From NCBI RefSeq assembly GCF_018420025.1, contig NZ_JAEDAM010000019.1:1-15583 (forward strand): 15,583 nucleotides of DNA, read 5' to 3'. Below the pieces are notes generated by a model. That model searched no databases. It was not told where the DNA came from and saw only the letters and a program-made list of their open reading frames with translations. The translations under genes were made by a program, and so were the position numbers. The DNA comes from Candidatus Vampirococcus lugosii. GTDB lineage: Bacteria > Patescibacteriota > Gracilibacteria > Absconditabacterales > Absconditicoccaceae. The first letter of the stretch is position 1. The number at the start of each line of letters is the position of its first letter. This document shows positions 314 to 15,583 of this stretch, piece after piece.

Positions 314-1576
314 ATGGATTATAAAAAAAATACACAATATGATAACAAAACATTAGATAATGATGATATAGTTAGTTTGAATAATAAATGATTAGCATTA
401 TATGATTCATGAAAATATGAAGAAGCTATTGAATATTATGATAAAGTATTGGAAATAGATCCAAATTATACTACTACTTTGAGTAATAAATGAAGTCTAT
501 TGCAATATTTATGAAGGTATGAGGAAGCTATTGAATCTTATGATAAACTTTTAAAGTTAGAATCTAATAGTACTAATATTTTAAACAATAAATGATTAGC
601 ATTGCATAATTTATGAAGATATGAAGAAGCTATTGAATCTTATGATAAAGCATTAGAAATAACCTCAAATTATGCTATTACTTTAAATAATAAATGACTA
701 GCATTAATCTTTATATGAAGATATGAAGAAGCTATTGAATGTTATGACAAAGTATTAGAAAAAAATCCTAATGATACTAAAGTAATAGTTGATAAAGCAT
801 TAGCATTATATAGATTATGAAGATATGAAGAATCTATTAAATTTCTTGATATAGCATTGGAAATAACTCCTAATGATCAGTCTATATTGGATAAAAAATG
901 AATTGTACTACAAACAATTTTAAATTCTAAAAAAGATAAAGATAGTGCAGAAATTTTTTTGGAAAATATATGTAAAGAACTAAATGTTATAGATGAATGA
1001 TACAAAACCAATAATATAAGTGATATAAAAAGTTCTTATTTTTGAATATTAAGAAAAATTGTTGATAGTAAAATTTATGATTCTTATATATTACAAAAAT
1101 TTTCTTTATCTTATACTTTAGCATATATATTATCAAATGAAAGTGATGAAGCAATTGATATATGGTTACAGCAAAGTGATTATGAATTGCTTAATCAATG
1201 AATGGAGTATATAAAAAAATGACCACTTTCATTATCTGTAAATGATACATTATTGTATAATGAAATATGTTGATATTTGTATTGTTCCAATTTAATTACA
1301 AATCCATTACAAGAAAAACAATCTAGTTTGGAAAACTATATGAGAGTAAATTGTAATTATTTTATTGAAAATGAAGATGATGATAATCTTATTAGGGTTT
1401 TGTGAATGTGGAAATATTTATTAAATAAAATATATAATTCTAATCCTCCAAAAAACACATTATATGATGATTATTTAAAAATAATAGTAGATAAAAAATC
1501 AAAGAAAAAAGAAATGTTTTTTATGAAAGAAATATGTAATTTTTTATTACCTGATAAATGGGAATTACCTAATTAA
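314..1576 (+). CDS. Tetratricopeptide-repeat (TPR) protein, 420 aa
   Basis: ATG 314, TAA 1574-1576. I checked the frame codon by codon; it is open only when TGA is sense. It has five to six 34-aa units with consensus NNKGLALxxLGRYEEAIExYDKALEIxPN, in which both Gly residues are encoded by TGA. The C-terminal ~250 aa are not repetitive. Confidence 0.9.
371..880 (+). repeat. Five tandem 102-bp coding repeats (TPR units), highly similar at the DNA level
   Basis: The string aataaatga recurs at 383, 485, 587 and 689, with degenerate copies at 791 and 893, giving an exact 102-bp period. The core tgaagatatgaagaagctattgaatcttatgataaa is nearly identical between units. Confidence 0.8.
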
Positions 1577-1687
1577 AAAGGAACTAATACTATAAGTGAG
1601 TAGAATTATTTGAAATGTGAAGATATTATTTTCAGAAGCTTAGATGTGCAATTACTTGAAAAGTATCACAAAATATGTATAAAAAAT

Positions 1688-1713
1688 ACTGAAATTAGTT
1701 TTCAGTGTTTTTT
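1688..1713 (+). terminator. Rho-independent terminator downstream of the TPR gene
   Basis: Stem actgaaa (1688-1694) pairs with tttcagt (1700-1706) around a 5-nt loop, followed by gtttttt. Confidence 0.55.
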
Positions 1714-1909
1714 AATCAATAAAAAATAATAATAATCAGAAGATTAGAATAATTTTTTATTGACTTTTATTTAAAAATAATTAGTTATATATTAACTATA
1801 AATTATTTTATATTTTTGTATTTTATTTTTTTAAGTGCTAATAATCATAATATTTTTATTTCCTTTTAAATCTTTTATTTAATCAAGGATTTGGTCTACA
1901 AAATTGAGA

Positions 1910-2035
1910 TTAACGACAAATTGATTGAAAAGCTCTAACTGATGTACATTTATTTTCTTCAGAAATAATATGTAATGAATACGATAAAAAAGATAACAAC
2001 AATATTAATGTAATTATAATAGATAATTTTTGCAT
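1910..2035 (-). CDS. Small hydrophobic peptide, 41 aa (MQKLSIIITLILLLSFLSYSLHIISEENKCTSVRAFQSICR), translationally coupled to the upstream redox gene
   Basis: Its ATG (2035-2033) overlaps the upstream TAA (2037-2035) as TAATG. It has an N-terminal signal/TM-like segment and two Cys in the tail. The ORF is short, so support is weak. Confidence 0.3.
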   Translation of the reverse strand: MQKLSIIITLILLLSFLSYSLHIISEENKCTSVRAFQSICR

Positions 2036-3648
2036 TATTCAAATTTTTCATAATAAATATTTTCATATCACATTTTAATTAATTTTTCTTTTGATTCTAT
2101 TACTAATCAAGGATTTCAACATATGTAAAATTCTATTTCTTTATCATATTTGAAATTTTCAACATTAATTCTTCAATAATTATATATATTTATATTTTCT
2201 TTTGATAAATAAATATTGATTTCCAAATTTTCTATTTTTTTCAATTCATCTAAATAAAATAAATCATTTTGATTAGCTACTCAAAAGTGCAAATATTTTT
2301 TACAGTTTTTAATATTTGGATTATTGATCATAGAATATATAGGTGCCAAACCCGTTCAAGTTGCCAAAAAAACTTTTGATTTATTATTAATTTTTAATTT
2401 AAATTCACCAAAAATTCAAGCAATTTTTAAATTATCTCATTTATTTAATTTTGGAAATAATTTACTAGCTCTACCATTTGCTTTAAGTTTTATAAAAAAA
2501 GTAAAATTTAATCAGCTTTTATCTGCTATACTATACTGTCTTATAAATTCTCAATCAAAATCTTCAAGCACAAATTTAATAAATTGTCAATCAAAATATT
2601 CCAAATTAGAATTTGATTTTATAACTAATTTAATTACATCTTTAGTAAGATAATGAATTTCTGCTATTTCAACTTTTTTATAATTTTGTTTTTCTTCATA
2701 ATAAGGGATAAAATCTTTTTTGCTAACTCAACATAAAGGACAAACCCAATCATTTGGAATGTCTTCAAATTTAGTTCAAGGAAGTAAACCTCAATCTGGA
2801 TCTCCTTTATTTTCATCATAAATATATCAACAAACTATACATATATATTTAGTAGTTTTTCAAGCTTTAATATTTTTGTATACAGAATTTTTTTTGAAAA
2901 AAACAATAGTTCTAAAAATAATAACACTTGAAAACAAAATCATATAAAATAAATCAATCCTACTAGCAAAAGCTATATGAATCATACTCAATAAAAATAA
3001 TGGATACACCATATAATGAATTCATTTCCAAATAGAACCTAGAATTTTTTGAGAAAAATTATTTGAACTTATTCATAAAATTAACATTATAAATCAAGCA
3101 ATAAGTCAAGTTAATGCATCCATTCTATTTTTAATATTTTTGAATATATACTCCAATAAACTTGAATCTCAAAAATGATAATATCTTTCAAGTTCAATAT
3201 AATTTAACAAATGAATCATAAAAAATAAAAATGATAATATTCCAAATATTTTTCTAATAAATATTAATTTACTATAATATTTATCACTAACAAAATAAGA
3301 TAATGGATTAATCAATAGTGCCATAGACAAATAAAAAAAAGCTATTTTACCTGAAATTCTTAATATACTATTATCATAAGATTGCATAGTATTTGCAAAA
3401 AAATATCATAATATTATTCAAGGAATTAATAAAATTATTAAACTTATAGAAAATATAGAAAAATTTTTTAAAGATTTTTTTTCTTTAAAGAAAAGCAAGA
3501 AAAAAACAGAAAAAATTATATACACTAATATTGTATACCAAAAAAATTGATTTAAATAAAAAATATTTTCCAAATCTAATTTCAAAAAAGAAATAATTAA
3601 AGGTAATTGAAAAATTGACTGTATTAATAATAATATATATTTTTTCAT
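2035..3648 (-). CDS. Three-module membrane oxidoreductase, 537 aa: ferric-reductase/NOX-type haem TM domain, rubredoxin, and an FNR-like FAD/NAD(P)H-binding domain
   Basis: ATG 3648-3646, TAA 2037-2035. I checked the frame codon by codon and it contains many in-frame TGA. The N-terminus is a multi-TM region with His pairs (FFMIHLLNYIELERYYHF; WKGIHYMVYPLFLLSMIHIAF, an H-x12-H spacing). The centre is a rubredoxin, [46 protein letters not shown]. The C-terminus carries the FNR motifs RQYSIA, GRASKLF, ATGTGLAP and YICGNPGL. Confidence 0.9.
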
Positions 3649-3655
3649 AAATTTA

Positions 3656-4039
3656 TTACAAATTAGATACAAATTCTTGGAAAGCTTCTGTAGTTAAACT
3701 AGCTCATCACAAAGTATCACTTATTTGAACTTCAGATGGAATTAATCAAACTACTTCATCATTAACTTCCTGAGCAAATGCTTCTTGTGATGGATTTTTA
3801 GGATCTACATTTATTGATGTAATTATTCATTTATTGTCCAAACTAATTTTTCAATCCAAAAAAGCTACTGAATTATCTGGCAAATTATATTCAATTGAAA
3901 AATCTATAACTTCATCATTTTTATCACTAGTTTGATTATTATTAGTTTGTTCATTCTCTTCTTCAGAATTTCATCAAATACAACCTGATAAAACAAAAAT
4001 TGATACAAAAGGAAGTAAAAATAGAGTTTTATTATTCAT
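3656..4039 (-). CDS. Lipoprotein with a C-terminal FMN-bind-like domain, 127 aa
   Basis: ATG 4039-4037, TAA 3658-3656. The signal peptide MNNKTLFLLPFVSIFVLSGC carries the lipobox LSGC. The C-terminus (...GIITSINVDPKNPSQEAFAQEV...QISDTLGGASLTTEAFQEFV) resembles the FMN_bind domain and its flavinylation-type motif Dxx(s/t)GA(S/T). It ends 7 nt before the next gene's start. Confidence 0.85.
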
Positions 4040-4204
4040 AATTATAATACAATTAATTTAATAAAATGAAATAGTATAATAATTTTTTAAATAATAAAAT
4101 CAAGTAAAAATACTTTTATATTTGAATTTTTTATTAAAATAATTATTATATACTTTAATTTAAAGTTTAGTTTAATTTAATATTTTTTTACAAAAAATAC
4201 AAAT

Positions 4205-6628
4205 ATGTTAATTTTTTTTATTATATTATCTATATTGTTTTTATTTTTTTTCTTTTTGATAAAATATTTAATTTTTCATATGAAGAAAAAAAATATACTA
4301 AAAAAAGCAGATGATATTAGATTTATTCAAGTAAAAATTTCTAGTAATAATTCTGAATGAACTGATCAAACTTCTTCTATGAAACAAAATATTGAAATAA
4401 TGAATCAATTGTACAAAAATTTGTGATCAGTTTATTCTGGAGATTATATGAGTACTAAGTTTGGTCAAAATTTCATAGTATTAGAAATGATTGTAGAAAA
4501 AGAAATGATAAATTATATAATGTGAATTCCTCAAGATTATGTTGAATCATTTGAAAAATTAATTTCATCATTTTATCCTTGATCTGTAGTAGATAAAATT
4601 TCACAAAATAAAATATTAAATGCATGAAATTGTGTTTCTGCTTGAGATATAGTTCTTTCCAAGTCTGATACTTTACCGATCAAAATTTATGATGATTTTG
4701 AAGCTGATCCTATAGATAGTATTTTATCTTCATTTTCAAAAACTAATTGGGATGAAAAATTAATTTTACAATTTGTAATAAGTCCATTATCCGATTGAGA
4801 ACAATCTAATTTTTCAAAAGCAGTAGAAGCTTGTAAGACAAGTAAAAAAAAGTCAATTTTTTGATTAATTAAAAAAATATTTGATTTTAATTCTGATGAA
4901 TGAGAATCAAAGTGAGAAGAAAAAAGTAAATATACATCTTCACAAACACAAGATATAGATAAAAAATGAGAATGAGAATTTTTTAATGTAAAGATTAGAA
5001 CATTAGCAATAAGTCCTGATCAAAATAGAGCAGATAAATTTTTGAGAGATATTCAAAGATCTTTAAGTCAATATAATTATGCATGATTAAATAAATTATC
5101 TGTAAAAAAACCAAAAAATTTAGATGATTTTTTATATAATTTTATTTATAAATCTCCTATTAGTTTACAAACTAATATAAGAAATATTCTCAAAACAGAA
5201 AAAGGTCATATATTTAGTATCAAAGAACTTTCTTCTCTTTATCATTTTCCTCATTCCAAATTTAATAAAAATCCAAGAATTAGATGGCAAAATTTTAAAA
5301 TAGTTCCAGCACCTGATACTATTCCTTCTGATTGATTATATATATGAAATAATTTATATTCTTGAGTTAATAAGAAAATTAGAGTAAAACCGGAAGATAG
5401 ATTTAGACATTTTTATTGTATTGGTCAAACTGGTACTGGTAAATCAACAATGCTTACTGTACAAGCAAAAGATGATTTAATTAATTGAAGATGATTTTGT
5501 ATGATAGATCCTCATGGGGATTTATGTGAAAGTCTTTTATGATATTTTCCCAAAGAAAGAATTAATGATCTTATTTATTTTGATGCAGCAGATTTTCAAA
5601 ATCCTATATGATTAAATGCTTTTGAAGCAGAAAATGAAGAACAAAAAGATGTAGTTGTAAGTGATTTGGTAGATATGTTTGTTAATCTTTATTGACATGA
5701 AATTTTTGGTCCTAGAATTCAAGATTATTTTAGAAATGGTGCATTAACACTTATGGATCAACCTGATTGATGAACTATGGTAGAGATTGTAAGACTTTTT
5801 GCAGATGAAGCTTTCCAAAAAACTAAACTTAAAAATGTAAAAAATCCAGTAGTAAGAAATTGGTGGGAAAAAACTTATGCAGCTATGTGAGATAGAGAAA
5901 AGGCTGAAGCTATTCCTTTTTTTCAAGCTAAATTTGGACAATTTACTACTACTCCTATTTTGAGAAATATAATATGACAAACTGAATCATCTTTCAAAAT
6001 GTCTCAAGTTATGCAAGAAAATAAAGTTTTGTTAGTAAATTTAAGTAAATGAAAATTGTGAGAAATAAATTCTGAACTTATCGGTAGAATTATTACTACA
6101 CAAGTAAAAGTTGCAGCATTACAAAGAGCATCTATGCCTGAAAATGAAAGAATTCCTTTTTATTTGTATATAGATGAATTTCAAAATTATGTAAGTCAAT
6201 CTATAGAAAGTATATTATCTGAAGCAAGAAAATATAAATTATGACTTACTGTAGCTCATCAATATATTGATCAACTTAGATCTCATTGATTATGATGAGA
6301 TTTGGATTTGTCAAAAGCTATTTTTGGTAATGTTTGAAGTATTATGGCATACAAAGTATGACCTGAAGATGCAGAATTTTTGGAAAGAGTTTTTGCACCA
6401 GAATTTAGCAAATCTGATTTGGTAAATATGGATAAATACAAATGAGTTATGAGATTATCTGTAGATAGTCAGCCTACTAAACCTTTTAGTATTGCAACTT
6501 TAAATCCATTTACTCCTTTTATAAATTCTCCTGAAAAAATTAAAGTAATAAAAGAAATTTCTTCTCTTAAATGGGGAAGAAAAAAAGAATTAGTAGAAAA
6601 AGAAATTTATTATAAAGTATGAGTTTAA
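4205..6628 (+). CDS. Membrane-anchored P-loop ATPase of the VirD4/TraG/TraD (type IV secretion coupling protein-like) family, 807 aa
   Basis: ATG 4205, TAA 6626-6628. There is an N-terminal TM segment (MLIFFIILSILFLFFFFLIKYLIF). Motifs are Walker A GQTGTGKST (5423-5449), MIDPHGDL, Walker B FYLYIDEFQNY, and ARKYKLGLTVAHQYIDQL, which is typical of the TraG/TraD C-terminal module. Confidence 0.88.
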
Positions 6629-6652: not shown

Positions 6653-7318
6653 ATGAATTCAACTATTAATTTATCTGAATTATTCTTGGGAACTTGTTTA
6701 CATTTTTTTGTAAATAATTTTTTTGATGAACAAAATGAAAATGAATTATTAAGTGATAATGAAATTTTACAAAAAATAATTGATTGAAATAAAAATATTT
6801 TTTCTTTATTGTTGGATAGATATTCTGATAAAATATATAGATATATTTTTTACCATTTTAATTTTGATAAAAAAATTTCTCAAGATCTTACTCAAGAAGT
6901 TTTTCTTCATGTTTGGAACAAATTAAATAAATTTGATAATGAACAAAAATTTGAACCATGGCTTTATAGATTGGCACATAATTGCTGTATTGATTGGATT
7001 AGGAAAAATAAAAACAATTTAAGTGAAAGTTCTTTGGATAATATTTCGTATGATATATGAGAAGCATTTGATGAGAATGATCTTGAAAATAATTATAAAC
7101 AAAAATTAATTTATCAAATACTTGAAAAATTGGATCATAAATCTAAACATATAATTATATTATCATATTTTGAACAAAAATCTTATGATGAAATTGCATA
7201 TATTATTTGAATATCAAAATGAGCTGTATGAACTAGTCTTACTAGAGCAAGAAATAAATTGAAAGATATCATAAACTCGGATGATGTTTTGAAAGATGCA
7301 CTTAATTTTGATTTATAA
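6653..7318 (+). CDS. ECF-type sigma-70 family RNA polymerase sigma factor, 221 aa
   Basis: ATG 6653, TAA 7316-7318. Region 2 reads DLTQEVFLHVWNKLNKF...FEPWLYRLAHNCCIDWIRK. The region 4 HTH reads SYDEIAYIIGISKGAVGTSLTRARNKLK, with three Gly encoded by TGA. The gene starts 24 nt after the ATPase stop. Confidence 0.9.
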
Positions 7319-7346
7319 AATTTATTTTACTATAAAATATTTTAGT

Positions 7347-8063
7347 ATGAAAAAAAAGCTTGATTTATCAAAACTACTTTCAAAAGATAATTATCAAGAA
7401 ATAAAATTATCAAAAGATATAAAAGATAATATATTGAAGCAAACTATTTACAAAAAACATAGTTTTTTGAGTAAGTTTAAATTTTATGCATTACCAAGTT
7501 TTGCTATATTATTAATATTTGTTTTTTGATTTTATTTTTATGAAATAAATAAAAATAGTTTTGTAAATCAAGAAAATCAAAAAAACATAAATATTTGACT
7601 TAATAATATTGAAAATCAAGAAGTTTGAAATTTTGAAGAAAATGAAGAAATTCAAGAAAATAGTATACAAAATTTTGCAAAAAATAGAAGTCTAGATCAA
7701 ATTTCTGAAGATGTAGAAATGTTTGATACTGATTCAAGTAATGATATTGAACAAAATATAGGTACATATTCTATGGAAGAATCTAATACTTGATTTGGTA
7801 GAGCTTGATTTGGAGCTAAAACAGTAGATGTTGCAAGTAGTTGAGTTTATGAAAAAGATGATTTTTATAATAAATTAAAAAAATATTTTGTAGAAAATTA
7901 TATTAAATTTATAATTTTATCTATATTAATAATTATTAATATTTTGATTTTATTTTATACATACAAATATTTTTCATTAAACAAAAAAATGAAAATATTG
8001 TTAATTATTTCATTTTTTGTAGATATTTTATTGTTTTATTATGTAATATTTATTTTAATATAG
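7347..8063 (+). CDS. Membrane protein, 238 aa; putative anti-sigma factor by position
   Basis: ATG 7347, TAG 8061-8063. It starts 28 nt after the sigma stop. It has a ~50-aa N-terminal cytoplasmic segment, a TM segment (FYALPSFAILLIFVFGFYFY), an acidic low-complexity middle and two C-terminal TM segments. No ZAS motif is present, so the function is inferred from synteny only. Confidence 0.65.
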
Positions 8064-8090: not shown

Positions 8091-10847
8091 TTAAGAATTA
8101 AGTATTGAATCGGCTCTTTTGAAAACACTAAATAAAGTTCATATACAAATATCTTTTTTTCACATAGGAACTGGTAATGTAGCATTATTTTCTTTATGTT
8201 TCATAATTCTGTGAGAAGTAGAGTTTTGTCTATCTTCTTCAAAACCAAATTTTTTCAATATTAAAACCATATCATTTGAGGATAAATCTTTTCTGAAATA
8301 TTTCAAAATATTATCATAATCTACTGTATTATCTTGTAATTCATTAGAATTTTTTTCTATTATTTCATCTATTGAAAAATATTTATTAATTCCAAACAAG
8401 AAATTAAATAAATTATGAGATATATTTGATAAATTTTTATTAAGTAAATCTTGATTAATATTTTGTGAACAGAATAAATCTAGTAAAAAATTAATTTTTT
8501 CTTCATCAATAGATTTTATAAAAAAATCAATATTATACAAAGATAAAAAATTTTTAATTATTAAATTATGATTTATAATATTTGATAAAAAATTTATATT
8601 TTTTATATTGACAAAAAAGATATCTAATTTTTCCAAATTTAGATTATTCATAATATTTTCAAAATAATACCAAATTCATCAATTTGAATTATTTTCAGAA
8701 TCTATATATTTCAATAATCATCTATTTTCCAAAAATGATAATATTTGAAAAAAGTTATAATATCAATTATTAATATTATCCAAGTTTTCAATTATAGAAT
8801 GAGTATCAATTTCATAATTTTGTAATATATTATAAATATTTGATATAATAGAATTATTAGTATTATGATTATCAATTGAATATAAAAAATCACTTAAACA
8901 ATTACAATCATCAAAATCATAATTCAATATAAATTCTTCAAAAATGTATTTATTACTAAAATATTTATTTATAAGTAAATTCATATTAATATCATCTATA
9001 TTTGAACGAAAAGCTAACTTATAAAGAACTGAAAATAAAATACTGTAATCGTTTTCATTATTTTCAAAAAAGCTTTTCCAAGTATTAATTTTTATTGAAT
9101 TTTTTCAAAATTTATTTTGTATATATAAATAATCAGAAAGTTTATCTTTTTGGTATTTAAATATTTTGCTTCTATTTTGATATTCATTTTCTATATTGTA
9201 AGAATTTATAATTTTATCAAAATAATTATTAAATTTATTAATATTATTTATAGTTTTGAATATATCGTTTTTATTATTTTCATAATAATCTTTAATTTCA
9301 TATACATATTTATCAACAGTTTTTTTATAAGTTGGATCAAAAAATTCTTCAAAATTTTGTAATTTAGATATATTTCATTTAATTTTCACTATAGCTTGTA
9401 CAAAATTTATAACTTCAGTTTTATTTTGTAGTTCAAATATTTTTTCAACTAAATTTATGTTATATGATAATAAATTTTTGATAAAACATAAATCAGCATC
9501 CAATAATTTAACTATATTATTAAATCATAATCTATTATTAATATTTTTATGTATAAAATCTAAATCCAAAAAATACATAAAATCTAATATATAACTTCAA
9601 TATGAATTAAAAAAATCTTGATTTTGAATCAAAAAATCATAATCAAATTTTTCAAATAAATATTTTTTATCTTCATTTGAAAGTGAATTAAGAAATTGTA
9701 AATTTAATAAAACTTCATCTTTTTTTACAAGTTCTAAAATATCATCTTTATTTAATATATTTCATTTATTATACATTTTATAAAATGATTTAATTTGCAT
9801 ATTTGATATATTTAAATCATTCAAATTTCATATTGAAAATATAATTTCCAAAAATTTTTTATCAAAATTATTTTCATAAAAGAAAATAAAATTAGATTCT
9901 ATATAATCTTTATCATCAAAAAAGGATAATAAATTATTATAATATTTATTTTTATTAAATAAATCTTTTATATAAAAAGAAAATCTATCAAAAAATTCTT
10001 GAGATATATAAAAATCTCTAATTCTTTTCTTTTCATAATTTAAAACGGCAGTAGTAGGACAGTTTTTGTTCCAAGAAATTAAAAAATCACATATATCATT
10101 ATAAATTATTTTTGGTAAAGATAATTTTTTATTAAAAAGATTGTAAAGCTGATCTATTAAAATATTGTTTTTAGTAAAATCTATATTTGAAATAGCAAAA
10201 TAATCTATTATATATAATATATCAATATATTCATATATTCATATTTTATCATTATTTATAAGACATATATCTTTTAGTTCATCTGAAAAATTAGAATAAT
10301 TTCTTAAAAAATTTGGTTTTTTAAATTTGAAAATAAATTTATCATCATTATGTACATTTCTGTATGAAAATGCTAATGTTCTATTCAAAGAAGTTAACCA
10401 ATAACAAAAAGACAAAACAATATCAAATATTTCAGAATTTCATTTGTATCTTATAATATCTTCTTCATAATCAATATCAACTCCAATATTTTCCAAAAGA
10501 TTTAAAAAATCTTTATATTTATTAACAAAAAATTCATAATATTTATCATCAGATTTTAATATATTAAACATATCATTACATACTTCTATCAAATCATCTA
10601 CTCATCATACATTAACCATTTTAGTCATATATCAAAAATTTCTTATAGAATCAAAAAAAATTCAAATATTATTTAAATTTTTTGATTTTAAAAAAGAAAA
10701 AAATTCTTTAATATTTTCATTTTCAATAATATTTTCAACATCATCTCAAACAGCAAGAAACATTTCATGTGCTATTTTTTTTAAATTATCGTTATTATTC
10801 TTTATATTATTGATATTATTTACAGGAATACTATTTTCTAAGCCCAT
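8091..10847 (-). CDS. Large (918 aa) uncharacterised cytoplasmic protein with a complete C-terminal HicA (mRNA interferase toxin) domain
   Basis: ATG 10847-10845 with an in-frame TAA five codons upstream; stop TAA at 8093-8091. I checked every codon on the plus strand for tta/cta and found none. The track ORFs 8160..8651 and 8763..8984 are in-frame fragments of this CDS. The last ~60 aa (MVLILKKFGFEEDRQNSTSHRIMKHKENNATLPVPMGKKDICIGTLFSVFKRADSILNS) match the HicA consensus (...L.k.GF...rq.GSH......vtvP.h..kdl..gtl..ilkqag). Confidence 0.85.
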
Positions 10848-14685: not shown

Positions 14686-15583
14686 ATGAAAACAAAAATA
14701 AAAAAAATATTTGGAGTGCTTTTTGTTGTTTTATTGCTTTTGATTTGATGAATTACTAAAGCAGATAAACATTTTGTTAGTTGTGATTTGGAGTTCAAAA
14801 TAGGAGATAATATAATATATGAAAATAATAATTCGCAGAAAGTTTTTAGATTTAATACTAAAGGTTCTTTGTTATTTTATACTGATCCAGCAAATATTTA
14901 TTTTGGTTTGGATAATTATACTGGGCTATGATATAATTCATTGTATGTAAATAGAAAATCTTGACAAGATGGGATTAGAGATGTTTCGCCTGAAATACAT
15001 AGATCATCTTTGCCAAATAATTGACTTGAATTTGTAAATACAAGTGGTGATAAGACAATATTATGGTGAGATGATGGTGCTTTAAATTCTAATAGATTTA
15101 TTGCTTATGATGGATTTCAAGCTGGTTGCTCTGATTCTGGTTGGAAAAATGAATTAACTAATAATTGGAATAGATATGATTATACAAATGATCCTGGGAC
15201 TTTTTATCCACAACCACTATGTTGAAATGAAAATGGTAAAGTTTATGCTTGGAATGAAACAAGTTGGGATACACAAGATTTTTGTACAGAAGGAACAGTA
15301 AATCCATCAAATCCAATTTTCCCTGATGAAGGAGAGACTAGGGCATGGACTTGTACCGCTCCTTCTCATAGTCCAGTAACTTGTAGTGCAAGGAGAGAGA
15401 CTGAATCACCTAATGATTGTACAGGTCCAGATTGAGCTATTATTGCTCATGGTGATAGTAGAACTTATTATAAAAATACTGTAGTAGATGGTGAAGAAGA
15501 TGATAATGCTTGTGTATTTGGTGAGTCCACCTTTCCTTGTATTATAGATGGAACAGGTGCAACTGGGGAAAATAATGTTTGTG
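14686..15583 (+). CDS. Secreted cysteine-rich protein, 3'-truncated by the window edge (299 codons visible)
   Basis: ATG 14686; I checked the frame codon by codon to the window end. The signal peptide is MKTKIKKIFGVLFVVLLLLIGGITKA. There are many Cys and W/N/D/T-rich segments (e.g. ETRAWTCTAPSHSPVTCSARRE). The gene is more GC-rich and uses GGN for Gly more than its neighbours do. Confidence 0.85.

Follow-up and report, generated by a model that had tools for sequence, protein, structure and literature searches.

Introduction

Bacteria of the Gracilibacteria and Absconditabacteria are host-dependent or predatory, have tiny genomes and possess no recognisable respiratory chain, which raises the questions of how they shed reducing equivalents and whether they can energise their membranes. 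Since 2021 the only candidate has been a tripartite protein for which no mechanism was given: Vamp_33_45 of Vampirococcus lugosii, in which Moreira et al. described eight transmembrane (TM) helices resembling those of flavocytochromes, a rubredoxin in the middle and, at the C-terminus, an NAD-binding ferredoxin-reductase domain (PMC8080830). It was reported to be conserved in Absconditabacteria/SR1 and proposed to act either in generation of a proton motive force (PMF) or in detoxification of reactive oxygen species (ROS) (PMC8080830). Here we describe a three-gene cassette on the minus strand, at positions 1910-4039, of the 15,583-nucleotide contig NZ_JAEDAM010000019.1 from Candidatus Vampirococcus lugosii (this whole stretch is hereafter called the window). 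The cassette encodes a predicted lipoprotein, a fusion protein of the tripartite architecture and a 41-residue peptide. We propose, with somewhat better than even confidence, that it is a self-contained outward transmembrane electron-transfer module, one of the MsrQ-like flavinylation-associated systems whose form is peculiar to those Patescibacteria that use genetic code 25 (Gracilibacteria/Absconditabacteria).

MsrQ-like flavinylation systems were defined by Meheust et al. (2021) operationally, as a PF01794 gene in a cluster with apbE and/or a gene for a flavin mononucleotide (FMN)-binding domain, and that survey recorded 1,797 clusters, of which 1,437 include an NAD-binding domain (PMC8238504). 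The systems are mostly actinobacterial, and flavinylation was found to be strikingly under-represented in the Candidate Phyla Radiation (CPR) (PMC8238504). MsrQ-like proteins have two highly conserved histidines that form one haem site (Huang et al. 2024, PMC11334425), and the proposed route runs from reduced nicotinamide nucleotide, NAD(P)H, to an extracytosolic flavin (PMC8238504; PMC11334425). Set beside the operational definition, the window has an FMN_bind-type gene (with a sub-threshold PF04205 match) adjoining the fusion gene and no apbE on the contig, and apbE is adjacent in 11 of 14 related loci. Compared with the MsrQ-like systems described so far, the present variant adds a rubredoxin, a domain with 0 mentions in PMC8238504 and PMC11334425, as well as two TM helices and a Cys-containing peptide, and the ApbE proteins of its relatives have no export signals.

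Other described systems share parts of this design. Homology links the TM core of the fusion to E. coli MsrQ (YedZ): all known haem-ligand and FMN-site positions are conserved, and both systems have an FNR-family NAD(P)H reductase as cytosolic donor. E. coli has this reductase, Fre, as a soluble protein of its own that delivers flavin, with the molybdoenzyme MsrP as acceptor (PMC12525009), whereas in the present fusion the reductase is attached via the rubredoxin and the proposed acceptor is an FMN_bind lipoprotein. Like SpNOX of Streptococcus pneumoniae (8qt6, 8qq7; PMC11564096, PMC11031084), the fusion is a single polypeptide in which a ferric reductase domain (FRD) of TM helices is followed by an FNR-type dehydrogenase. 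Unlike it, NOX-type long forms have four histidines and two haems, with electrons passing from flavin adenine dinucleotide (FAD) directly to the inner haem and then to O2 (PMC3591440); they are without rubredoxin and without a flavin-carrier partner, and where they have the inner TM3 histidine the present family has arginine. STEAP proteins, which have ferric/cupric reductase activity, resemble the fusion in a single outer haem, an inner-leaflet flavin pocket and the combination of Arg (TM3) with Gln (TM5) (PMC3591440, PMC12525009), but they are eukaryotic, with an N-terminal F420-oxidoreductase-like NADPH domain, no Fe-S module and no covalent-flavin partner.

A similar purpose is found in the extracellular electron transfer (EET) system of Listeria, which serves NAD+ regeneration in a fermentative cell, as we propose here. 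Its last carrier outward, PplA, is a lipid-anchored FMN_bind lipoprotein flavinylated by FmnB/ApbE (PMC8238504, PMC9973259). Listeria differs in that the membrane is crossed by way of Ndh2, EetA/B and a dedicated quinone, with external flavin provided through an ECF transporter, whereas here one fusion protein would do the crossing, with no quinone implied. Finally, the class IB reductases BenC and MmoC also place a small one-electron Fe-S domain, fed by FAD, right before the FAD/NAD module, but theirs is a plant-type [2Fe-2S] ferredoxin in soluble proteins that feed oxygenases.

The likeness to Vamp_33_45, drawn from its published description, extends to the same tripartite architecture and the same code-25 lineages. 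The paper on Vamp_33_45 treats the protein alone and reports no ApbE neighbour, flavin-carrier lipoprotein, Cys-peptide or single-haem/flavin-site signature. A preliminary description of the window, made from its letters alone, had stated that no characterised protein was known to place a rubredoxin between TM and FNR modules; this holds for biochemistry, but the architecture has been published as Vamp_33_45 (PMC8080830), and clusters of FRD, FMN_bind and ApbE genes as 'MsrQ-like systems' (PMC8238504). The central protein is thus already in the literature, uncharacterised, while the cassette-level picture appears to be new. So does the linking of the Vamp_33_45-type protein with MsrQ-like flavinylation systems, for which we found no connecting paper in open-access text.

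Results

The cassette is read in genetic code 25

The window has a GC content of ~20%, and when it is read with translation table 11 the cassette region gives only open reading frame (ORF) fragments of at most 85 residues, for which reason that reading was rejected. Treating UGA as a sense codon raises the number of residues in stop-to-stop ORFs of at least 100 residues from 1,266 to 6,181 across the window. The rubredoxin of the fusion protein identifies the amino acid: its Cys knuckles take the forms CxxCG (C-I-V-C-G-Y) and CPxCG (C-P-L-C-G) solely when UGA is glycine, and its conserved tryptophan is encoded by TGG. Since the knuckles need Gly and the conserved Trp has its own codon, UGA is read as Gly and not as Trp. 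Code 4 (UGA as Trp) was rejected, as under it neither the rubredoxin knuckles nor the nucleotide-binding glycines nor the flavinylation motif described below stay intact. Homologue columns at UGA sites hold G or W according to the translation code of each database. The organism is of CPR type, as the preliminary description had supposed, and uses code 25.

Public databases store these genes in code 4, with Trp at every UGA (P0001, P0035 and most homologues), and in such copies Trp appears in the GxGxxP motif, in the flavinylation motif and inside the Cys knuckles. For most family members, precomputed Pfam annotation misses at least one of the four domains of the fusion, probably in part as a result of this mistranslation.

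Under code 25 the cassette runs along the minus strand as the lipoprotein gene (4039-3656, 127 residues), a 7-nt gap, the fusion gene (3648-2035, 537 residues), a TAATG overlap and the peptide gene (2035-1910, 41 residues). All three genes start with ATG, at 4039, 3648 and 2035, and the stop codons of the first two lie at 3658-3656 and 2037-2035. Public gene calls on Logan contig SRR13241708_22 are identical (127, 537 and 41 residues). This arrangement is the one given in the preliminary description, whose view that the genes form a module is also supported. With their 7-nt gap and TAATG overlap, the three genes look like a co-transcribed, operon-coupled set. A promoter scan was uninformative (32 sites against 33.8 expected), and a terminator scan found none.

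The membrane domain resembles that of MsrQ

The fusion gene contains 23 UGA glycine codons, and its product consists of an eight-TM MsrQ-type cytochrome domain, a rubredoxin and an FNR-type FAD/NAD(P)H module. This order of domains had been recognised from the letters alone, and all four Pfam families now score above their gathering cut-offs (GA): Ferric_reduct (PF01794) at residues 100-221 (43.8 bits, GA 28), Rubredoxin (PF00301) at 267-313 (79.7 bits, GA 23), FAD_binding_6 at 327-417 (31.1 bits, GA 21.1) and NAD_binding_1 at 427-516 (33.2 bits, GA 22). An AlphaFold2 (AF2) model of the code-4 copy P0001 has eight TM helices, a rubredoxin and an FNR fold, with a mean pLDDT of 84.5. Hydropathy gives the same eight TM cores as AF2, and the positive-inside count for an N-in/C-in protein is 15 K+R inside against 6 outside. 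Because of the eight TM helices and this count, we place the N-terminus, the rubredoxin and the FNR module in the cytosol, as had been supposed for the latter two, with H146 and H224 toward the outside. Two extra N-terminal TM helices (residues 1-57, nt 3478-3648; AF2 helices 2-22 and 35-53, matching hydropathy cores) occur in the long form of the protein only. They are followed by the MsrQ/YedZ-type ferric-reductase core (residues 73-247, nt 2908-3432), which is supported by Pfam, invariant columns and an hhalign alignment to E. coli MsrQ.

To the preliminary description, this membrane part was a NOX-type, His-rich, di-haem domain. Conservation across a 29-member alignment speaks otherwise. 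The only invariant TM histidines are H146 (codon at nt 3213-3211) and H224 (nt 2979-2977); neither H158 nor H211 is conserved, the latter being Gln in 21 of the 29 members. At the inner TM3 ligand position, 14 residues before H146, stands an invariant Arg132 (R132-K133, nt 3255-3250). L191 and S195 are likewise invariant, and W207 and K208 are near-invariant.

These positions have counterparts in E. coli MsrQ, whose sequence was taken from the MG1655 record. Aligned to it by hhalign (97.1% probability, E = 4.9e-11, 167 columns), the family profile pairs H146 with H91 and H224 with H164, and at the flavin site R132 with R77, K133 with R78, L191 with L131, S195 with S135, W207 with W147 and H211 with H151. 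In MsrQ, H91 and H164 ligate one periplasmic-side haem and the other six residues line a cytosol-facing FMN pocket, for which R77/R78 are essential (PMC12525009). NOX and DUOX proteins have the inner-haem His in place of R77, and STEAP proteins have Gln at the H151 position. According to Zhang et al., Arg(TM3)/Gln(TM5) is the signature of the single-haem YedZ/STEAP branch, and FRD 'long forms' with a dehydrogenase domain retain all four histidines (PMC3591440).

Because only H146 and H224 are invariant and all eight MsrQ cofactor-site residues map to conserved positions, we assign the domain to the MsrQ type; the pattern indicates one outer haem and an inner flavin pocket, as in MsrQ and STEAP. 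The di-haem NOX model is rejected on the conservation pattern (R132, variable H211) together with the MsrQ mapping. The family is unusual in that a YedZ-type one-haem domain is joined to a dehydrogenase with a rubredoxin between them. As the sole conserved haem sits near the outer face, electron-tunnelling limits suggest that a cofactor in the inner pocket would be needed to span the membrane.

The rubredoxin occupies a slot between membrane and reductase modules

The rubredoxin domain (residues 267-313, nt 2710-2850) follows a low-confidence linker (residues 257-263). Its Fe(Cys)4 ligands C270, C273, C303 and C306 are invariant in the 29 aligned sequences, and it scores 93.1 bits against the cut-off of 90 for the NCBIfam rubredoxin equivalog NF045768. 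The FNR-type module (nt 2101-2670) is made up of FAD_binding_6 (nt 2398-2670) and NAD_binding_1 (nt 2101-2370) and carries the motifs R370-x-Y-S373, G431-T-G-x-x-P436 and C510-G. Among the 29 members R370, Y372 and S373 are invariant, and G431, T432, G433, P436, C510 and G511 are conserved at 90% or more. Its top NCBIfam similarities are to the reductases BenC (E = 1e-26) and MmoC (E = 1e-23). A full-length Foldseek search with the fusion model returned SpNOX 8qt6 as best match (E = 8e-16), then FNR-family reductases (TM-score (target) up to 0.79), NOX5 and DUOX1.

We found ~29 homologues with the same architecture, and an exhaustive profile search of 1.84 billion representatives gave only ~17-25 full-length proteins with TM, rubredoxin and FNR parts. 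Within the genome collection, full-length relatives were confined to records labelled Gracilibacteria, SR1, Peribacteria or 'bacterium', all of which need UGA recoding; a full-length homologue with 39% identity lies at locus L009 of an SR1 genome. Short forms of 460-491 residues are without the two N-terminal helices. Apparent TM-plus-rubredoxin matches in Bacteroidales, Acidobacteriota and Armatimonadota (L029, L034, L037) proved to be soluble flavin-reductase-rubredoxin fusions and were set aside. The title of locus L008 (CAYXBC010000054.1), 'Candidatus Peribacteria', may be a mislabelling: the locus needs UGA recoding (3,621 against 358 residues in long ORFs), and its cassette layout is near-identical to that of L009 from SR1.

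Related proteins show these modules in other combinations. In P0195 a Fer4_13 ferredoxin (single-cluster 4Fe-4S) stands exactly in the rubredoxin slot between a Ferric_reduct TM domain and FNR. The order is permuted to Fer4_13, FNR and C-terminal TM domain in P0178, P0184 and P0194; P0224 consists of Fer4_13, FNR and PepSY_TM; and P0168 has rubredoxin-FNR joined to a different, unidentified TM domain. Because a one-electron Fe-S domain recurs beside FNR, as in BenC and MmoC, these proteins support a relay role for the rubredoxin. P0249 is also among the proteins with shuffled modules in the representative search.

The lipoprotein is a candidate flavin carrier

The lipoprotein gene (3656-4039) encodes a signal peptide with lipobox, an acidic linker and a C-terminal FMN_bind-type domain. 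In the signal peptide (nt 3980-4039), which has a maximum 15-residue hydropathy of 2.41, the lipobox is L-S-G-C (Cys20), which predicts that the lipoprotein is lipid-anchored and extracytoplasmic. A lipobox is kept in the orthologues and across a 118-member family. The FMN_bind-type core (residues 43-126, nt 3662-3913) is predicted to have three beta-strands and then two helices, and the protein ends in ...S-D-T-L-G-G-A-S-L-T-T-E-A-F-Q-E-F-V-S-N-L. This C-terminus contains the candidate ApbE flavinylation motif D108-T-L-G-G-A-S114 (nt 3698-3718), in which both glycines are UGA codons and Ser114 is the predicted FMN-phosphoester site.

Orthologues in the same cassette position at L004, L005, L006 and L012 end in V-D-T-V-S-[R/E]-A-S-L or V-D-A-I-G-G-A-S-L. 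The best E-value of these four close orthologues against Pfam FMN_bind (PF04205) is 0.0014, and a PDB profile search from the four alone gave nothing relevant. A profile of the orthologues finds 212 relatives, many of them named 'FMN-binding domain' or carrying PF04205, and 93 of the 118 family members match PF04205 individually (E <= 0.01). Across the 118 homologues Ser114 is invariant and Ala113 near-invariant (>=90%). The motif has Gly at position -3 in place of the Ser/Thr of Dxx[S/T]GA[S/T], which is true of the whole subfamily.

With the 118-sequence profile, a PDB profile search reaches the flavinylated domain 8P2A (E = 0.021). Comparison of the family with 8P2A by hhalign gives 93% probability (E = 3.5e-7) and lays D108...S114 on D-A-V-S-G-A-T, so that Ser114 is aligned with the flavinylated Thr. 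In 8P2A the Thr of DAVSGAT carries covalent FMN, and the fold is beta-beta-beta-alpha-alpha (PMC10339131). The AF2 model of a code-4 copy of the lipoprotein has a core pLDDT of ~90, with strands at 43-52, 58-67 and 73-79 and helices at 83-96 and 111-126; the motif stands at the start of helix 2, and the order of elements is that of 8P2A. We conclude from these comparisons that the FMN_bind domain of the lipoprotein is a divergent one, in which a Ser could plausibly serve as acceptor for ApbE.

A two-Cys peptide accompanies the long form of the fusion

The third gene (1910-2035), whose start overlaps the fusion stop, encodes MQK, one TM helix and then NKCTSVRAFQSICR. Loci L001, L003-L006 and L008-L011 have a peptide gene at the corresponding place; Y19, S25, N28, C30 and V-R are invariant and there is a second Cys, as summarised by N-x-C-[TS]-[GS]-V-R-x-[FY]-x(1-3)-C. 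It has no match in Pfam or NCBIfam. It is present in 10/10 long-form (8-TM) loci and 0/4 complete short-form (6-TM) loci. Being kept at the same position in every long-form locus, it is, as the preliminary description had taken it to be, a real gene and not a chance ORF. Its confinement to 8-TM loci suggests that it pairs with the two extra N-terminal helices of the fusion, and the peptide is most likely a small membrane subunit docking on them. The MKK/MQK start favours an N-in/C-out orientation, which would put both cysteines outside.

ApbE genes and tailed exported proteins neighbour the cassette in relatives

Of 14 related loci whose fusion gene is complete, 11 have a gene for the flavin transferase ApbE (PF02424) no more than ~3 kb from it (L001 11898-12791; L003 4566-5465; L004 2012-2878; L005 4301-5164; L006 4069-4941; L008 3367-4266; L009 3305-4198; L010 8720-9616; L011 3229-4122; L012 4104-5000; L017 3799-4851). 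The usual order in the relatives is carrier, fusion, peptide, ApbE. A link to ApbE, for which the preliminary description had suggested a search, is thus seen in the relatives but not in the window. Each of the 11 cassette ApbEs starts with the first catalytic-domain strand, and their maximum 15-residue hydropathy is <=1.48, where the signal peptide of the lipoprotein reaches 2.41. In 10/11 loci a stop in the same frame occurs 0-16 codons before ApbE, leaving no space for a missed signal peptide, and at L004 and L006 the peptide gene directly adjoins or overlaps the start of ApbE. Because they have no hydrophobic N-terminus and stops lie close upstream, these ApbEs look cytosolic. Most ApbEs are exported lipoproteins (PMC12052999).

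In clades without the FMN_bind lipoprotein, exported proteins encoded beside the fusion end in ...[D/N]-T-[K/R]-T-[K/R]-A-S-stop, and one ends in ...T-T-T-G-A-S. They comprise mini-lipoproteins (57-68 residues), homologues of the Cys-peptide with long Gln/Ala-rich extensions and larger secreted proteins. The ...A-S-stop tail was found in 13/653 six-frame ORFs, all on the cassette strand and all except that of L017 within ~2 kb of the fusion (L001 8581-9642 and 9664-9837; L003 7633-8043 and 8105-8311; L008 6578-7150 and 7240-7440; L009 6660-7100 and 7189-7368; L010 3456-4505 and 4523-4696; L011 6432-6944; L017 9028-10914). The tail resembles the internal flavinylation motif DTVSRAS ending right after the acceptor Ser, and such tails may be natural C-terminal flavin tags.

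Adjoining the cassette in its closest relative (L004 2880-6640, minus strand) are genes for glucose-6-phosphate dehydrogenase, a 309-residue unknown protein and 6-phosphogluconate dehydrogenase; these NADPH-producing neighbours are a weak hint at NADPH as donor. Two-component systems (response regulator and histidine kinase) flank the cassette at L006 90-1771 (PAS/HisKA) and L010 6808-8739, in the latter between the peptide gene and ApbE, and cassette expression may be regulated through them.

The other genes of the window, among them those for a TPR protein, a TraD/HerA-like ATPase, an ECF sigma factor, GreA and DHFR, give no clue to the electron acceptor. Upstream of the cassette and divergent from it, 4205-6628 (plus strand) encodes an 807-residue membrane-anchored P-loop ATPase with weak HerA/TraD-TraG matches. 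The ECF-type sigma factor gene (6653-7318, plus strand) overlaps a gene for a 260-residue membrane protein that could be an anti-sigma factor (7281-8063, plus strand). A 918-residue Asn/Ile-rich protein is encoded at 8091-10847 (minus strand); its sole family match is HicA_toxin, recorded on the same gene in L089, and it is unusually large for a protein with a HicA-like end. At 14686-15583 (plus strand) a partial gene runs off the contig; it encodes a secreted, Cys-rich protein of at least 299 residues that has a signal peptide, contains many Asp and Gly residues as well, and matches no Pfam family.

Discussion

In the mechanism we propose, cytosolic NAD(P)H would reduce the FAD of the C-terminal FNR module, and the Fe(Cys)4 centre of the rubredoxin in the same polypeptide would take up electrons from this FAD one at a time. 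The rubredoxin would in turn feed the cofactor of the cytosol-facing pocket, predicted by MsrQ homology to be a flavin held by R132/K133, L191, S195, W207 and H211. From there the electron would pass to a single haem b near the outer face, with H146 and H224 as ligands, then to FMN on Ser114 of the lipid-anchored FMN_bind lipoprotein, and the lipoprotein would pass electrons on to an external acceptor. The path drawn in the preliminary description, from NAD(P)H to an external FMN protein, is retained as a proposal; its 'membrane haems' should read one outer haem and an inner flavin site. The most likely role of such a path is NAD(P)H re-oxidation (redox balancing) in a fermentative, non-respiring cell by means of an extracellular acceptor, for which Fe(III), soluble flavins or quinones, and O2 are candidates.

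Several points weigh against this proposal. Computation shows how the genes are built, which domains they encode, the topology, the conserved ligand and site residues and, in relatives, the linkage to ApbE; which cofactors fill the sites, in what sequence they pass electrons, what the peptide does and which acceptor is reduced are inferred. Among the window ORFs there is no gene for an acceptor or terminal reductase. The preliminary description had called the lipoprotein external and flavinylatable, and the family and 8P2A evidence sustains this; on its own, however, the lipoprotein scores under the PF04205 cut-off (15.8 bits against GA 22, E = 0.022), and Foldseek of the lipoprotein against the PDB gave no significant match, with RnfG at E = 0.18. 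Both AF2 models were built from code-4 database versions with Trp at UGA sites (P0001 for the fusion, and P0035), and the pTM of 0.54 for the fusion model leaves the relative placement of the rubredoxin, FNR and TM parts unestablished. As for the relay, P0176 has TM followed by FNR with no Fe-S module, so that an Fe-S relay is not obligatory in principle. Rubredoxin potentials usually lie above those of flavin couples, which would imply an uphill step.

Flavinylation itself raises further difficulties for the proposal. No ApbE gene or remnant was found in the 15.6-kb window, where searches of the ORFs with hidden Markov models and code-25 tblastn gave chance-level matches, and for this reason flavinylation in this organism is unproven; since the contig is only 15.6 kb, ApbE may be encoded elsewhere in the genome. 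In the relatives, all 11 cassette ApbEs are without signal peptide, lipobox or TM anchor. A cytosolic ApbE, as these sequences would imply, and an exported carrier would conflict with the textbook extracytosolic ApbE reaction, and because the relatives' ApbEs have no export signal the simple picture of external flavinylation is not secure. Possible readings are flavinylation before export, a cytosolic protein as the true ApbE substrate, and unconventional export.

Flavinylation before export is central to a bolder version of our proposal, which we put forward as a speculation on the unlikely side. It would make the cassette a minimal EET chain unique to code-25 Patescibacteria, in which, ahead of Sec export, cytosolic ApbE would put FMN on a Ser that lies at the carrier's C-terminus or close to it. 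In sister clades the FMN_bind domain would have been reduced to C-terminal flavin-tags, on mini-lipoproteins and signal-anchored peptides ending in ...T-[K/R]-T-[K/R]-A-S-COOH, which would serve as lipid-tethered shuttles fed by the fusion. The rubredoxin would replace the lost inner haem as the one-electron bridge from FAD to the pocket. If true, intracellular flavinylation would remove the need for FAD export.

Other roles have to be weighed against outward transfer to a flavin carrier. One is that of a bacterial NADPH oxidase with O2 as dedicated acceptor, making superoxide/H2O2 as a predatory weapon or scavenging O2, with the lipoprotein and peptide as accessories. The nearest full-length solved structures are indeed those of SpNOX (8qt6, 8qta, 8qq7; E ~1e-15), with NOX5 and DUOX1 next; domains with covalently bound flavin, once reduced, can pass electrons to O2 (PMC10339131), and the organisms are epibiotic or predatory (PMC8080830). 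The rmsd (root-mean-square deviation) to SpNOX is nevertheless 12 A, which reduces the resemblance to modular similarity, and the four-His di-haem site is absent, with R132 in place of the inner TM3 His and Gln in place of H211 in 21/29 members. As the conserved flavin carrier and ApbE also favour hand-off to a carrier over direct haem-to-O2 chemistry, we regard an oxidase as quite unlikely. If the membrane part were only an anchor or side outlet, the protein could be a tethered NAD(P)H:rubredoxin oxidoreductase serving cytosolic rubrerythrin, flavodiiron or superoxide-reductase partners in oxidative-stress defence. Soluble flavin-reductase-rubredoxin fusions are common in anaerobes (L029, L034, L037), and ROS detoxification was the alternative offered by Moreira et al. 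(PMC8080830). It is the haem- and flavin-site residues of the TM domain, however, that are the protein's most conserved positions, and the Fe-S module is swapped for a ferredoxin at the same junction in P0195 and missing in P0176. Rubredoxin potentials would suit such cytosolic partners, yet the operon partners are all exported or membrane proteins and the window ORFs include no rubrerythrin or flavodiiron protein gene, making this reading improbable.

The published PMF proposal takes the tripartite protein as the core of an unconventional respiratory chain energising the F1Fo ATP synthase (Moreira et al. 2021, Vamp_33_45). The architecture is identical (8 TM, rubredoxin and FNR), no other membrane redox protein is obvious in these genomes, which also encode an H+-type ATP synthase (PMC8080830), and a 2026 paper still cites the protein solely as a proposed PMF alternative (PMC13059738). 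Against this, a closely related epibiont keeps the ATP synthase without the protein (PMC13059738). There are no quinone-loop or pump elements, and the conserved partners, flavin carriers and ApbE, point to delivery outside the cell. NOX electrophysiology shows that when the electrons of cytosolic NAD(P)H are exported, H+ is set free within the cell and negative charge leaves it. Such electron export would depolarise the membrane and acidify the cytosol, a polarity opposite to that of a usable PMF, and we consider PMF generation decidedly improbable. That the TM core is clearly homologous to MsrQ raises the further thought that the fusion feeds a periplasmic molybdoenzyme MsrP in repair of oxidised methionines. 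This we find barely credible, as the protein scores 54.7 bits against a cut-off of 130 for the NCBIfam MsrQ equivalog, no MsrP/Oxidored_molyb gene occurs in the Pfam-scanned window ORFs or Pfam-annotated loci, and the partner is an FMN_bind lipoprotein instead.

Outward electron transfer through an MsrQ-type domain to a flavin carrier bears on two questions about these bacteria. The scarcity of flavinylation reported for the CPR may be partly an artefact, since the survey required ApbE export signals (PMC8238504) and code-25 genes are mistranslated. On charge-movement grounds, the same picture speaks against the published PMF idea and for NAD(P)+ regeneration by outward electron transfer. The cassette may be the only membrane redox system of these non-respiring, host-dependent bacteria, and its gene context together with the MsrQ-type domain turns a vague 'unconventional respiratory chain' into a concrete wire with named residues.

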